NCBI GenBank assembly: GCA_041664605.1
Contig: JBAYKO010000001.1
Span: 83,586-147,585 of the forward strand
Origin: Minisyncoccota bacterium
GTDB taxonomy: Bacteria; Patescibacteriota; Minisyncoccia; Phycocordibacterales; UBA9973
Direction of reading: 5' to 3'
DNA: 64,000 nucleotides
Position 1 is the first letter of the stretch; the number at the start of each line of letters is the position of its first letter. Positions 8,029 to 56,380 of the stretch are shown piece after piece. A model generated the notes under the pieces. The model was given only the letters and a program-made list of their open reading frames with translations. It searched no databases and was not told where the DNA came from. A program made the translations under genes and the position numbers.

Positions 8029-8346
8029 ATGGAATTTGCAGTTATAGAAACAGGTGGAAAACAATATAAAGTCTCCGTTGGGGATATTTTAAAAGTTGAG
8101 AAATTAACTGGTGATTTTAAGGTGGGTGACAAGGTTACTTTTGATAAGGTTTTGCTTACAAGTAATGGAAAGGATATAGAAGTTGGTGCTCCTTACTTAG
8201 AGAAAGTAAAAGTGGAAGCTATTTTTCAAAAAGAAGGAAGAGGTCAAAAGGTTTTAGTTGTAAAATACAAAGCAAAAAGCCGATATCTAAAAAGAAATGG
8301 TCACAGACAGACTTTTAATGAAGTAAAAATTTCATCAATAAAATAA
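8029..8346 (+). CDS. rplU: 50S ribosomal protein L21
   Basis: MEFAVIETGGKQYKV...KYKAKSRYLKRNGHRQ, typical L21. Confidence 0.92.
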   Translation: MEFAVIETGGKQYKVSVGDILKVEKLTGDFKVGDKVTFDKVLLTSNGKDIEVGAPYLEKVKVEAIFQKEGRGQKVLVVKYKAKSRYLKRNGHRQTFNEVKISSIK

Positions 8347-8437: not shown

Positions 8438-8938
8438 ATGAAAAAAGTTTGGAAATTCAGTAAATTTATAATTTTTATTATTGTTTTTGGTGGGAGTGTA
8501 GTCGGATGTTACTTTTGGGATTACCCATATTTTTCTTCGAAAAGAATAGAAAAGATCAATATCTCTTCTTTTAAAGGAAGAGTAGTAAAAGCAGACTCTA
8601 TCTCACCTGGAACCTTTAAATTGGATGTTCCATTCGAATCATCATTGAAATGGAAAGAAAATGCAATTCTCTCTTATGGGGCAAATGGTTTTAATGATGG
8701 ATCGATTCAGGTTTGGAAACCAGACCCCTTAACTTCTGGGGTGTTTTTATACTCATACTATTCATATGAGGCGCCGTGGAATTATACAGTTGATAAAATT
8801 TGTTATAATTCTGGTTCAAATAGTCGTGAGATTGTTTTTAAAATGGGTCCAAAATTATTCTGGATTACATTAATCATTTTTGGCCAAATATGTCTTATTG
8901 TAATAGTCTGCGGTATAACCGCGGCAATCCTTTGGTAA
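8438..8938 (+). CDS. Hypothetical membrane protein (N- and C-terminal TM segments)
   Basis: Hydrophobic ends. Followed by a terminator at 8959-8974. Confidence 0.55.
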   Translation: MKKVWKFSKFIIFIIVFGGSVVGCYFWDYPYFSSKRIEKINISSFKGRVVKADSISPGTFKLDVPFESSLKWKENAILSYGANGFNDGSIQVWKPDPLTSGVFLYSYYSYEAPWNYTVDKICYNSGSNSREIVFKMGPKLFWITLIIFGQICLIVIVCGITAAILW

Positions 8939-8952
8939 TAAAAATATGATTT

Positions 8953-8984
8953 CAAAAACCCCGCAATTGTGGGGTTTTGTTTTG
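8953..8984 (+). terminator. Rho-independent terminator (CCCCGCAATTGTGGGG)
   Basis: Stem 8959-8974 plus T-run. Confidence 0.8.
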
Positions 8985-9046
8985 TATTGACAGAATGTAA
9001 TTTCTTGTGCTAATCTTTAGTCAGAAATATTTTAAATGTTATTTAG

Positions 9047-9274
9047 ATGGATTCATTTTTGAAAATATTAAACAGTATTATATTTTATTTATTTGGGTTT
9101 GTTTCAGGAATGTTATTTATTGGTATTATGGTTGTTCTTTTAAAAGAAGACATCCCGCCAAAGGTTATTTTTGAAAATAAAGATTTTATTATTTTTGAAT
9201 ATCAAGGTGGATATATAAATCCAATTGAGAAAAATTACAGGGAATCATTCCAAAAAATCACCCCTCAGGGGTGA
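9047..9274 (+). CDS. Hypothetical small membrane protein (75 aa)
   Basis: N-terminal TM helix. Terminator-like hairpin TCACCCCTCAGGGGTGA at 9259-9276. Confidence 0.45.
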   Translation: MDSFLKILNSIIFYLFGFVSGMLFIGIMVVLLKEDIPPKVIFENKDFIIFEYQGGYINPIEKNYRESFQKITPQG

Positions 9275-9341
9275 TTTTTTATTGACAGTTTTTTAAAGCA
9301 TTTTTGAAATAATTTTTATTAAAATATGCTATACTCAAATT

Positions 9342-9842
9342 ATGCTATCGCGGAATTTGAGTATAGAAGACAAAATTTTAAAACTTTTATTTGAGCCAAA
9401 ATATCGATATAAGGGTATGTTTGTCAGTACACTCGGTTTACCAGCCGTTTTTAAAAACAAAAAACAATCTATTACTAATGCTATTTATCGACTAAAGAAA
9501 GAAAATTATATCTTAAAAGAAGATAAGTGTATTCGAATACTTCCTAGGGGGGTAAAATATATTGAGAATAAAAAAAGCCGGCTTTTAATTTTTAATTCAT
9601 TGTATAAAAAAGGAGCACCCAAGAACCTATTAATTATGTTTGATATTCCAGAGATCAAAAAAGCCGAAAGGGAATGGTTTCGTTTTCACTTACGGAAGTT
9701 CGATTATTATATGATTCAAAAAAGCGTTTGGATTGGTCCTTCACCTTTACCGAAAGATTTTTTAGATTATTTAAAAGAAATTAAACTTGAAGAATGTATA
9801 AAAACATTCAAACTAGCCAAATCATTTAATACTCAAACTTAG
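9342..9842 (+). CDS. PadR-like winged-helix N-domain fused to a Cas2-like (VapD/Cas2 fold) C-domain; hypothetical regulator/nuclease
   Basis: The N-terminal about 90 aa resembles PadR-type wHTH. The C-terminal LLIMFDIPE...REWFRFHLRKFDYYMIQKSVW matches the Cas2 beta1 (hhhYDI) and RxxhxKxLxxyGxRhQxSVF signature. Confidence 0.5.
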   Translation: MLSRNLSIEDKILKLLFEPKYRYKGMFVSTLGLPAVFKNKKQSITNAIYRLKKENYILKEDKCIRILPRGVKYIENKKSRLLIFNSLYKKGAPKNLLIMFDIPEIKKAEREWFRFHLRKFDYYMIQKSVWIGPSPLPKDFLDYLKEIKLEECIKTFKLAKSFNTQT

Positions 9843-9886
9843 CTACCGCAAAGTTTGAGTATTAAAATTAATAATGATTAATTTCA

Positions 9887-10501
9887 TTATTGACGATTTT
9901 TTAATGCATTTTTTATTGTATCACTATCAGAATATTCAAGTTCTGTGCCAGTAGAAAGTCCACGTCCTAAACTTGAAATTTTAAAAGAATATTTTTCTTG
10001 AAGTGGTGATAACATTTTTCTTATATAGATATCTGTATGTTCGCCGTGAGGATTTAAAGACATTGCAATTATTATTTCTTTTAATCCATTTTCTTTCAAA
10101 TCCTTCTCTACTCTTTGTAACAATTCTCTAATGCGAATTCTTTTCTCTGTATCTTTTTCTGTGATTGGAACAAGTCCTCCTAATATAAAATAATTTCCAC
10201 CATAAGTTCCACTTTTTTTCATACTTTCATAATCAGCGTCTTTTTCAATAACCATAAGTAGTGATTTGTCTGTATTTTTTCCAATACATATTTCACAAAA
10301 TTCTCTATCAGGATATTCGAAGTGCTTAAAACACATTTTACATTGAGAAGTTTGTTTTTTTAATTCAGAAATTAGATGCGTGAGTTCACTCACATAATCT
10401 TTATTTGAGGATAAAAGAAAATAAACAAAACGCTTGGCTTGCCTTTCGCCAATTCCGGGGAATTTTGCAAAATATTGAGATAGTTTATCGATTGGATTCA
10501 C
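9887..10501 (-). CDS. recR: Recombination protein RecR
   Basis: HhH (FPGIGERQAKRF), C4 zinc finger (CKMCF...CEIC), Toprim domain. The ORF-track start at 10522 is a TTG inside the repeat element. A GTG at 10499-10501 directly follows the element, as in the other copies. Confidence 0.85.
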   Translation of the reverse strand: MNPIDKLSQYFAKFPGIGERQAKRFVYFLLSSNKDYVSELTHLISELKKQTSQCKMCFKHFEYPDREFCEICIGKNTDKSLLMVIEKDADYESMKKSGTYGGNYFILGGLVPITEKDTEKRIRIRELLQRVEKDLKENGLKEIIIAMSLNPHGEHTDIYIRKMLSPLQEKYSFKISSLGRGLSTGTELEYSDSDTIKNALKNRQ

Positions 10502-55193: not shown

Positions 55194-55305
55194 AATTTCT
55201 TGTCCTGCGAAGCCTTGGCGAAGCAGGATGATTAATTTTTTACTTTTCAGCCATAGGCTGATCCGCCTTGGGCGGAATAACTTTTAACTTACTTGTATTA
55301 TATCA

Positions 55306-55382
55306 CCCTGTAGTGAATTTTGGAAAAATACAAAGTATAAAATCTGATTAAAATCAGATTATTTCCAAAATCTACTACGGGG
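55306..55382 (-). repeat. Divergent short member (G) of the inverted-repeat element family (F-type ends), 110 nt upstream of gap
   Basis: CCCTGTAGTGAATTTTGG ... CCAAAATCTACTACGGGG inverted repeat, similar to copy F ends. Internal palindrome AATCTGATT/AATCAGATT. Does not abut a start codon. Confidence 0.45.
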
Positions 55383-55394
55383 TACTAAATTTAA

Positions 55395-55423
55395 ATAAAA
55401 AAAACCCCGCCGTAGCGGGGTTT
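55395..55423. terminator. Bidirectional terminator (CCCCGCCGTAGCGGGG)
   Basis: Stem 55404-55419 with A7 upstream and T-run downstream. Confidence 0.7.
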
Positions 55424-55649
55424 AGGGTGCAATAGCTCTTTTATTTTTTTACCGCATCAGCGTATAGGTCTGGGATAATAGCCCGAGAGTGCCTTGATAA
55501 ATCAAGATCTCCACCATTTCCATGGCCTACCGGTGAATCTACAGGGGTCAATCGTAACTGACTTGCTTTCGTGTTGTTTTTTAAAAAATTTTAACTACTG
55601 CAAAATTACTATATCAAATCAATAATATAAGTCAAGCCTTAAAATTAAA

Positions 55650-55680
55650 TAAAAAAAGCCCCGGCTGCTGCCGGGGCTGT
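55650..55680 (-). terminator. Rho-independent terminator on minus strand (AGCCCCGGCTGCTGCCGGGGCT + A/T run)
   Basis: Stem 55658-55678. On the minus strand it is followed by TTTTTTTATTT. Confidence 0.7.
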
Positions 55681-56095
55681 AATATCCAAAGACCCACTCT
55701 TTAGATACTTTCCAGTTTACTAGGAAAAATTGCTGGTGACTTTATGGGTTTGGTCCAAAGTCAATACTCCATCAATAAATCCTAACTGTGTTTCGAAAAT
55801 TGTCTTCGAGGTTTAAACGCAAAACTTGCTACTTTTTCGCCTAGGTGCCGGCATTATTTACTCTTTGAAAGCTTAACTAATGGTTTGGGGGCACCTTCTT
55901 TCCGCCTATGCTTAATTGTACCTTTATACGTACGTTTCAGCTGATCTGCCTTGCCGAGGGGCGATATATCGCGTACCTGTGGCGTTGTATGGCGGGGCTT
56001 TTTATAAAACACCCGGGGGTTCCCGATGGAGATAAAACTCCGCTGCAATGGGGCTACCCGGTGACTAATAACCTTTGAAGAACAATTTTGTAACT
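55681..56095 (-). ncRNA. Candidate structured ncRNA (GC-rich about 400-nt gene-free block; family unassigned, strand uncertain)
   Basis: About 45% GC versus about 30% background. No credible ORF. Bracketed by a promoter-like TTGACA-16-TATACT (minus) at 56098-56125 and a minus-strand terminator at 55658-55678. Many local helices. Contains a GGAAAG/GGUGCC...GGCACC pairing that could be P4-like, but no full consensus match. Confidence 0.35.
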
Positions 56096-56097
56096 AA

Positions 56098-56125
56098 AGT
56101 ATAGCAAATCTATTAGATTTGTCAA
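56098..56125 (-). promoter_or_regulatory. Sigma70-like promoter on minus strand (TTGACA-16-TATACT)
   Basis: The reverse complement of 56098-56125 reads TTGACAAATCTAATAGATTTGCTATACT. Confidence 0.4.
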
Positions 56126-56180
56126 GTACTATTTAAATATTTAAAATACCCTTATTTTTCAAGCTATTTTTGAAATAAAT

Positions 56181-56214
56181 AAAACCCCAGTTGCGACCTA
56201 ACTGGGGTTTTATA
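56181..56214. terminator. Bidirectional terminator hairpin (CCCCAGTTGCGACCTAACTGGGG)
   Basis: Stem 56185-56207 with A/T runs on both sides. Confidence 0.65.
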
Positions 56215-56328
56215 ACGTTCTTTGAAATAGTGTACTCGTGGAGTAAACCTTCAAGGATGGATAAGAACGATTGGGCCGCTTGTTTAATAGGATAGCATAT
56301 TCAATTTTATTGTCAACTATTATTCATT

Positions 56329-56380
56329 AAGTGACACAATTTCTGCAGGTGCAGAAATTGTGTCACTTCGTGTTTTTTGC
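56329..56380 (+). terminator. 19-bp perfect hairpin plus T6 (plus-strand terminator geometry) immediately 3' of gatB stop
   Basis: AAGTGACACAATTTCTGCAG-GTG-CTGCAGAAATTGTGTCACTT then CGTGTTTTTTG. Confidence 0.6.

Follow-up and report, generated by a model that had tools for sequence, protein, structure and literature searches.

In a 64,000-nucleotide stretch of a Minisyncoccota bacterium genome (GenBank assembly GCA_041664605.1, contig JBAYKO010000001.1, positions 83,586 to 147,585 of the forward strand; termed here the window), one gene encodes a 166-residue protein in which a winged helix precedes a Cas2-like domain. The gene is bracketed by two matching palindromes of about 40 bp, and homologous genes are bracketed in the same way by pairs whose arms differ between paralogue groups. 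We consider it fairly probable that this is a dimeric autoregulatory PaaX-like DNA-binding protein, for which the palindromes would serve as paralogue-specific 40-bp operators. The elements of the locus are as follows.

9342-9842, + strand: gene of the short PaaX-like protein, an open reading frame (ORF) with ATG start, 166 amino acids
9363-9581, + strand: winged helix, residues 8-80 (full-length AlphaFold2 model)
9627-9812, + strand: Cas2-like β-α-β-β-α-β domain, residues 96-157 (models and Pfam)
9329-9366, no strand: upstream palindrome (proposed operator 1), CTATACTCAAATT-ATGCTATCGCGG-AATTTGAGTATAG
9825-9866, no strand: downstream palindrome (proposed operator 2), TTTAATACTCAAACTTAGC-TACC-GCAAAGTTTGAGTATTAAA
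9327-9335, + strand: extended -10 promoter TGC-TATACT, ending 6 nt before the ATG

The gene and its flanking palindromes

The upstream palindrome has perfect 13-nt arms (9329-9341 and 9354-9366) around the centre TATC (9346-9349), and it includes both the -10 box TATACT and the ATG. The arms of the downstream palindrome (9825-9843 and 9848-9866) are the same as those of the upstream copy, and the element overlaps the stop codon (9840-9842); the two palindromes of the window are 79% identical to each other. This cognate pair, the strongest feature of the locus, had been overlooked in the sequence-only reading of this DNA from which our analysis started.

The family was sampled at 80 loci from species-representative genomes, and both flanks were inspected for 83 distinct family genes. 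A credible element was found on both sides in 77 of these 83 genes. The consensus spans about 40 bp and consists of an arm of 8-10 nt, the sequence A(C/T)TTCTGC-(T/G)AT(C/A)-GCAGAGTT and the reverse complement of the arm, with the core TCTGC-NATN-GCAGA. Conservation was also seen at positions outside the search constraints, namely the central AT (95-97%), the T at -5 (86%) and CA/TG within the arms (61-84%). At the 77 loci, the arms of the upstream and downstream copies matched at 7.4 of 10 positions within a locus versus 3.9 of 10 between loci, a difference that none of 2000 permutations reached. The arms read ATACTCAAA in the clade of the window gene, and TCTACAAAC, TGACACA, AATACAAAC, ACTCACCA and TGTTACAA at loci L028, L046, L084, L024 and L037, respectively. 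A paralogue sharing 24% identity carries its own pair of elements with a different core. Among two distant relatives, with E-values of about 1e-23 and about 1e-28 against the family profile, L093 has the element on both sides and L094 has an upstream copy as the only one detected.

By mapping the elements across 1.27 Mb of flanking DNA, we located about 60 at the ends of family genes and about 7 elsewhere. A high-copy repeat of the REP/RAYT type was rejected on these grounds, as no more than about 7 of about 67 elements stand apart from a family gene and at least one of these, in L019, is a displaced flanking copy. At that locus (8141-8184), a polysaccharide lyase 14 gene lies between the stop codon of the family gene and its downstream element. 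At L078 (9049-9092), the order is element, a 227-residue secreted-looking ORF, element, family gene and element. The elements may be insertion hot spots.

A TATAAT or TATACT box stands exactly 6-7 nt upstream of the ATG in 48 of the 83 family genes, often with a TGn extension, and a Shine-Dalgarno-like motif at -16 to -5 was found in none of the 83. Given this lack of a Shine-Dalgarno motif and the closeness of the -10 box to the ATG, leaderless transcripts are probable for the family. The centre of the upstream element lies at -37 to -49 in most paralogue groups, which places its right arm at the -35 position; in the clade of the window gene the centre lies at +4, and the element, covering about -16 to +24, takes in the -10 box together with the start codon. 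In both arrangements, putative binding to the element would occlude the core promoter.

Domain organization of the protein

The sequence-only reading had proposed a PadR-like winged helix fused to a Cas2/VapD-like domain. Both motifs on which it had based the C-terminal assignment are present, LLIMFDIPE at residues 96-104 and REWFRFHLRKFDYYMIQKSVW at residues 110-130. The best-scoring Pfam family for this region is PaaX_M (PF20803, "PaaX protein central Cas2-like domain"; residues 97-159, E-value 2e-12, 47.4 bits for a cut-off of 24), with twice the score of CRISPR_Cas2 (PF09827), which at 24.1 bits lies slightly above its cut-off of 23.8. The NCBIfam cas2 model (TIGR01573) also gave 24.1 bits, slightly below its cut-off of 24.5, and 11 PADLOC Cas2 models matched residues 96-148 (best E-value 4e-7).

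Structure prediction agreed with these assignments. The full-length AlphaFold2 model, built with 63 homologues (predicted local distance difference test, pLDDT, 80), displays a winged helix at residues 8-80 followed by a β-α-β-β-α-β domain at residues 96-157, and a model of residues 90-166 alone (pLDDT 84) has the same β-α-β-β-α-β fold. When the C-terminal model was compared to the PDB with Foldseek, Cas2 and VapD ranked first (probability 0.99-1.0, template modelling (TM) score 0.56-0.60), the matches including 3exc (probability 1.0, TM 0.60), 8ia4, 2ivy, 3ui3 and 4qr0, so that the fold anticipated from the sequence was borne out. Residue D101, at the end of β1 in the position of the metal-binding Asp of Cas2, is kept in at least 90% of the 63 homologues and pairs with the Asp of VYDVSDD in a profile alignment to the Cas2 structure 3exc. 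The β2-β3 region reads IQKSVW, a Cas2-type QKSVW motif.

Searches with other models were negative or marginal. The 166-residue protein gave no Pfam match to PaaX_C, stopping 7-9 residues past the middle domain, and none to the PaaX N-terminal domain (PF07848); the PaaX equivalog TIGR02277 scored 12.7 bits for a cut-off of 264.55. AsnC-type domains were matched in neither Pfam nor NCBIfam. A specifically PadR-type winged helix was not supported either, the Pfam PadR domain (PF03551) not being recovered. A phmmer search of the protein against PDB sequences yielded no match, and the profile of 63 homologues yielded marginal ones only (TcaR, E-value 0.18; Cas2 3exc, E-value 0.23). Using hhalign, 36 winged-helix residues of the family profile were aligned with E. 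coli PaaX at a probability of 4.7%; as this alignment is weak, the link to PaaX rests on the Pfam PaaX_M match and on fold comparison. We conclude that the protein corresponds in its layout to the PaaX core, a winged helix and a Cas2-like domain, minus PaaX_C. The proposed fusion is thus genuine, albeit not a new architecture.

Comparison with known systems

PaaX, the phenylacetyl-CoA-responsive repressor of E. coli (PDB 8a39; COG3327), matches the window protein in domain order, with a winged helix at the N-terminus and a Cas2-like domain in the centre, its Pfam layout being PaaX 19-87, PaaX_M 104-172 and PaaX_C 190-280. The sites it binds consist of inverted half-sites set far apart, TGATTC-N27-GAATCA, and overlap promoters, its own among them (PMC9493321). 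Its half-sites are about 27 bp apart and those of the family palindromes about 25-30 bp apart, a geometry that appears similar. PaaX differs from the window protein in carrying PaaX_C, a helical domain by the effector crevice, whereas the window protein ends at residue 166, and in its linkage to paa genes, of which there are none near the window family. Where E. coli PaaX reads LSEGL (in LLLLSEGL) and APSLM (in LAPSLM), the window protein reads FDIPE and QKSVW. The family further differs from PaaX in its paralogue-specific arms and in an additional site at the 3' end of the gene. The uncharacterized PaaX-like protein Rv0674 of M. tuberculosis (PDB 3kfw) is longer (234 residues) and shares 9-12% identity with the window protein.

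Cas2 proteins (3exc, 2ivy, 4qr0, 7cr6) share the hhhhFDI...QKSVW signature, the conserved β1 Asp and the ferredoxin-like fold. However, they stand alone at about 80-110 residues or are fused to Cas1, Cas3 or DEDDh, whereas the window protein is a winged-helix fusion of 166 residues; they adjoin cas1 and an array, whereas the window gene has neither nearby and scores only at Cas2 thresholds. Unlike Cas2, family genes occur several to a genome, and each is flanked by palindromes of its own. The VapD toxins (HP0315, 3ui3; H. influenzae VapD, 6zn8) share the Cas2-like fold and are encoded with a small VapX partner gene, whereas the window protein lacks a VapX-like partner and is fused, chromosomal and syntenic.

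Lrp/AsnC regulators combine an N-terminal helix-turn-helix with a C-terminal β-α-β-β-α-β oligomerization domain and are autoregulated via palindromic sites. The window protein resembles them in size and logic by analogy only, since fold matches favour Cas2 and PaaX; assignment to the Lrp/AsnC family was rejected because its structures (2p5v, 4pcq) were recovered only at low probability. What appears new relative to these systems, as judged from sequence, is a PaaX core without an effector domain that has retained the Cas2 signature and is bracketed by its own putative operators.

A large and diverged family

A word-indexed search returned more than 824 matches, nearly all of 158-175 residues, and an exhaustive profile search (E-value ≤ 1e-10) returned 1075 clusters at 50% identity, mostly of 150-230 residues. 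Wherever the sources named an organism for the homologues, it belonged to Paceibacterota, Nomurabacteria or Parcubacteria. Public labels of near-identical members vary by pipeline between "CRISPR-associated endonuclease Cas2", which on some homologues comes from PGAP, "DNA-binding transcriptional regulator PaaX", which on many comes from IMG, and "hypothetical protein"; the pipelines alternate in this manner because Cas2 features are retained where PaaX has lost them. A literature search recovered no description of a short PaaX-like family or of its palindromes. IMG/VR viral contigs contained no relative of the family and PHROGs gave no credible match.

Many genomes carry two or three diverged paralogues, which within one genome share about 50% identity and differ in their arms. 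The genes within 10 kb of the window gene are housekeeping genes (rplU, recR, dnaB, trpS and a PBP gene), and other contexts place the family gene by pur genes, or by pgk, HIT and recJ. The idea of a conserved functional partner was rejected, as the neighbours are housekeeping genes that differ among paralogue groups. It is to be noted that several of these groups adjoin DNA repair or replication genes (recR-dnaB, recJ, rnhA, uvrC, a UvrD-like helicase-nuclease), in genomes that are small and dense in housekeeping genes.

Arm sequences and the winged helix

Across the family, the mean pairwise identity is 0.39 for the N-terminal domain and 0.73 for the C-terminal domain. The identity of the arms correlates with that of the N-terminal domain (rho 0.39, and 0.23 among distant pairs), versus 0.18 and 0.03, respectively, for the C-terminal domain. 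The columns most informative on the arms include residues 41, 42, 46, 50 and 52, in the predicted recognition helix, and 58-59, in the wing.

Left and right halves agreed to the same extent within an element (0.652) as across the two elements of a locus (0.642; 76 loci, p = 0.22). The elements showed no bias of G-U over A-C mismatches, and most mismatches were non-wobble. Since agreement is equal within and across elements and G-U bias is lacking, the four half-sites of a locus behave as equivalent copies of one recognition sequence, a pattern that would be expected of a symmetric protein-binding site and not of a selected hairpin.

These observations bear on whether the palindromes could instead act as RNA hairpins, a 3' stabilizer or terminator and a 5' structure at the start codon, with the Cas2/VapD-like domain, a member of an RNase-type family, binding or cutting its own mRNA. 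The window elements do fold stably (-18 to -21 kcal/mol, z -6 to -10), the downstream one lies at the 3' end of the mRNA, and RNase activity is reported in PDB titles for Cas2 and VapD homologues. However, besides the missing excess of complementarity within elements and the mismatch pattern described above, the upstream copy lies 5' of the -10 box in most paralogues and would therefore not be transcribed from that promoter, no T-tract follows the hairpins, and a terminator scan found no terminator at the downstream element. We regard this explanation as improbable.

A proposed autoregulatory mechanism

The autoregulatory explanation draws directly on the domain folds, the family of the middle domain, the sites at about 77 of 83 loci, the matching of their arms, the correlation with the N-terminal domain and the equivalence of the half-sites. 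From these we infer binding by the 166-residue protein rather than by another factor, the geometry of the dimer, its contact with the core, repression and looping. In this model, a dimer would bind the two-fold-symmetric site of about 40 bp, the Cas2-like domain acting as a dimerization module as in PaaX. The two variable winged helices would read the outer, paralogue-specific arms of 8-10 bp (ATACTCAAA in the window), and the nearly invariant Cas2-like dimer would lie over the conserved centre TCTGC-NATN-GCAGA. Bound over its own leaderless extended -10 promoter, the protein would repress its own transcription, and two dimers may connect the second site, at the stop codon, with the first, thereby looping the 0.5-kb gene. 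The sequence-only reading had suggested a toxin-like or regulatory role, of which the regulatory one is the better supported.

Several observations weigh against this explanation. Shared ancestry confounds the correlation of the arms with the winged helix. At 55 of 82 loci the next gene downstream runs convergently, so that the 3' site is not the promoter of another gene and has no obvious regulatory use, and the only cognate sites in the 64-kb window are the two at the gene itself. Regulation restricted to the gene itself leaves unexplained why the protein is more conserved than RecR and L21. D101 and QKSVW are kept in the family, whereas they are lost in E. coli PaaX, which hints at something beyond dimerization. 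Finally, plain regulation does not account for the flanking duplications, the empty site, the multiple diverged copies and the low synonymous divergence that are described below.

Insertion footprints and a possible cassette origin

Around the unit formed by palindrome, promoter, gene and palindrome, we detected in the window a direct repeat of the 3' end of recR.

9279-9327, no strand: decayed second copy of the recR 3' end, abutting the left palindrome; the - strand reads ...YFKNALKNCQ-stop
9887-9935, - strand: true recR 3' end, ...SDSDTIKNALKNRQ-stop, which reads KNALKNRQ-stop, the partner of the repeat at 9279-9327

The two copies are identical at 24 of 27 positions (shuffle p < 0.005), with a unit of 560 bp between them. 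At the same place in orthologous loci, the - strand translated by eye reads QNALKNRQ-stop, ENTLKNRQ-stop and NKNALRNRQ-stop, and five of the six differences between the copies of the recR 3' repeat at L014 are synonymous. Direct repeats outside both palindromes were found at 6 of 83 loci at shuffle p ≤ 0.005, for about 0.4 expected; most loci have no duplication. At L025, the promoter and 5' end of uvrC, whose identity was confirmed, are duplicated around the unit with 52 of 61 nt identical, as is also the case in L030 and L044, and the duplication at L039 comprises the final 21 bp of a UvrD-like helicase gene, with 21 of 21 nt identical. The duplications, counted at these six loci plus L025 and L030, measure 21-61 bp and lie at irregular distances (0 to about 80 nt) from the palindromes. 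A similarly diverged relative (L090/L091) lacks the unit between rplU and recR, which stand tail to tail at a distance of 44 bp; this empty-site test rests on a single lineage, a metagenome scan for recR relatives having given three loci. The duplications, the empty site and the matching ends suggest that the unit arrived, in the past or at present, by insertion at gene ends with long target duplications.

Other insertions were seen at or near these loci. At L044 (3295-4683) and L030 (10990-12312), a truncated uvrC start (MIRQD...) next to the downstream side of the unit is followed by an ORF of 440-462 residues that has no Pfam match, in the place where L025 has an intact uvrC. A TnpB-like identity for the 462-residue ORF by the L044 unit, suggested by a resemblance of its N-terminus seen by eye, was dropped as Pfam gave no match. 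In the window, 8438-9274, between rplU and the unit, encodes a predicted membrane protein of 166 residues and a 75-residue ORF, neither with a Pfam match. In L010, L014 and L016, rplU lies about 60-200 bp from the family gene, and 8438-9274 therefore resembles a further lineage-specific insertion at the same spot.

The unit could accordingly be, or descend from, a small insertion cassette, either a relic or slow-moving, of which the protein would be the end-binding factor. The protein would possibly be a Cas2-like metal-dependent nuclease or a synapsis factor, and the cassette would insert at the ends of housekeeping genes and duplicate 21-61 bp. We judge this unlikely, although it is the most serious competitor of autoregulation. 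Speaking for it are the duplicated ends of recR (3'), uvrC (5') and the helicase gene (3'), with protein-like conservation in the recR copies, the empty 44-bp junction between rplU and recR, and the two or three diverged copies per genome, two of which were found 10 kb apart on one contig. L085 is 74-79% identical to five members of the helicase-adjacent group, yet lies in another context.

The conservation of the gene itself also speaks for it. In the clade of the window gene, protein identity is 70-75% where it is 58% for RecR, 59% for L21, 71% for DnaB, 36% for TrpRS and 42% for CysRS, with synteny kept. Conservation at synonymous sites exceeds that in five flanking genes: in comparisons of L009-L017 with the window, the fraction of identical residues encoded by the same codon is 0.63 versus 0.50 expected per amino acid, and synonymous divergence (dS) is about 1.3 for the family gene but saturated for rplU, recR, dnaB, trpS and cysS in the same genome pairs. 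Leu, Arg, Ser, Thr and Val codons show this conservation most strongly; it extends gene-wide, with a peak in the first 12 codons, which overlap the palindrome.

In many insertion sequences, an inverted repeat overlaps the promoter of the transposase. The unit would share this layout, by analogy only, in being one small gene with matching putative sites at both ends, the left one over its promoter, and some flanking duplications. Unlike insertion sequences, however, the family has no transposase fold and no identical or near-identical copies within a genome, and it has kept a stable synteny through deep divergence. The arms of paralogues differ. Positions are stable, as 83% of the pairs with at least 70% identity have common neighbours and all ten members of the window clade lie between rplU and recR, and a dS of about 1.3 argues against recent spread. 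In length the duplications far exceed typical target-site duplications, and their distances to the ends are irregular; neither a known fold or motif of a transposase or recombinase nor an HUH motif was recognized, PaaX_M and Cas2 being the only matches; the family is absent from viral contigs; and loss would explain the single empty site equally well. More doubtful still is the bolder form of this proposal, according to which the unit would be a minimal mobile or integrative cassette whose only protein, with its winged helix and Cas2-like domain, recognizes both palindromic ends and draws them to each other, and which inserts at gene ends with duplication of 21-61 bp of target. Target duplications of such length are otherwise typical of the duplication of CRISPR repeats by Cas1-Cas2.

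Toxin and CRISPR readings

A self-contained toxin-like module, in which a VapD/Cas2-type nuclease toxin would be joined to an autoregulating DNA-binding domain, appears very improbable. Its C-terminal domain has the Cas2/VapD fold and keeps the β1 Asp that is catalytic in Cas2, and palindromic autoregulatory sites are typical of toxin-antitoxin operons. However, there is no antitoxin partner gene, the neighbours vary between paralogue groups, and, unlike typical toxin modules, the gene keeps its synteny over deep divergence and exceeds RecR and L21 in conservation. The toxin-like role put forward in the sequence-only reading is thus unsupported. The closest characterized relative sharing the two-domain core, PaaX, acts as a repressor, and the domain serves there for dimerization (PMC9493321).

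That the protein might be a genuine adaptation Cas2 of a CRISPR-Cas system elsewhere in the genome is effectively refuted: against the marginal CRISPR_Cas2 score, the PADLOC matches with E-values down to 4e-7 and the PGAP names stand the winged-helix fusion, a PaaX_M score far above that of Cas2, an NCBIfam cas2 score below its cut-off, two or three copies per genome each with its own palindromes, and the lack of CRISPR arrays in 1.33 Mb flanking 83 homologues and of cas genes among those called within 3-10 kb in five contexts. The 64-kb window itself holds no repeat-spacer array, as had been noted from the sequence alone, and the accompanying remark that no other cas genes lie nearby was likewise correct.

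Implications

The family does not belong to CRISPR; the label Cas2 misleads, and counting the family as a CRISPR component overstates the presence of CRISPR in Patescibacteria. The ultra-small Paceibacteria have very few recognizable regulators, and this is a large family in which each member carries a readable, putative cognate site. The recognition helix and the arm together make a candidate specificity code that could be tested in vitro without culturing. The retained Cas2 signature links Cas2 and VapD to the middle domain of PaaX and suggests a DNA-bound role for the Cas2-like dimer outside CRISPR. Given the insertion footprints, the unit may represent a small cassette of a new type. If the protein of such a cassette did draw both ends to each other, the cassette would be a new kind of mobile element and a candidate relative of the ancestor that was the source of Cas2, the DNA-bridging subunit of the CRISPR integrase, and of the dimerization domain of PaaX.

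Other features of the window

A further palindrome was detected away from the family gene.

56327-56370, no strand: orphan palindrome, GTGACACAATTTCTGC-AGGT-GCAGAAATTGTGTCAC, paired at 16 of 16 positions, with the same architecture and other arms

Its arms are those of other paralogue groups (L046, L055, L063, L065). It lies 15 nt from the stop codon of gatB, facing an ORF-poor stretch, and no family gene adjoins it. A second family gene in the window, by this palindrome or at the window end, was rejected, as tblastn with all paralogues found none; the cognate paralogue may lie outside the window. Rfam searches of the region of this palindrome and of the whole window recovered two tRNAs only. 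The adjoining stretch, 55200-56330, comprises 1.1 kb without an ORF over about 70 residues, at a GC content of 38-43% versus 30% for the window. Although Rfam gave no match there even at E-value ≤ 0.01, terminator-like hairpins were seen by eye near 55395, 55650 and 56180-56215, and the stretch resembles two or three small RNA genes.

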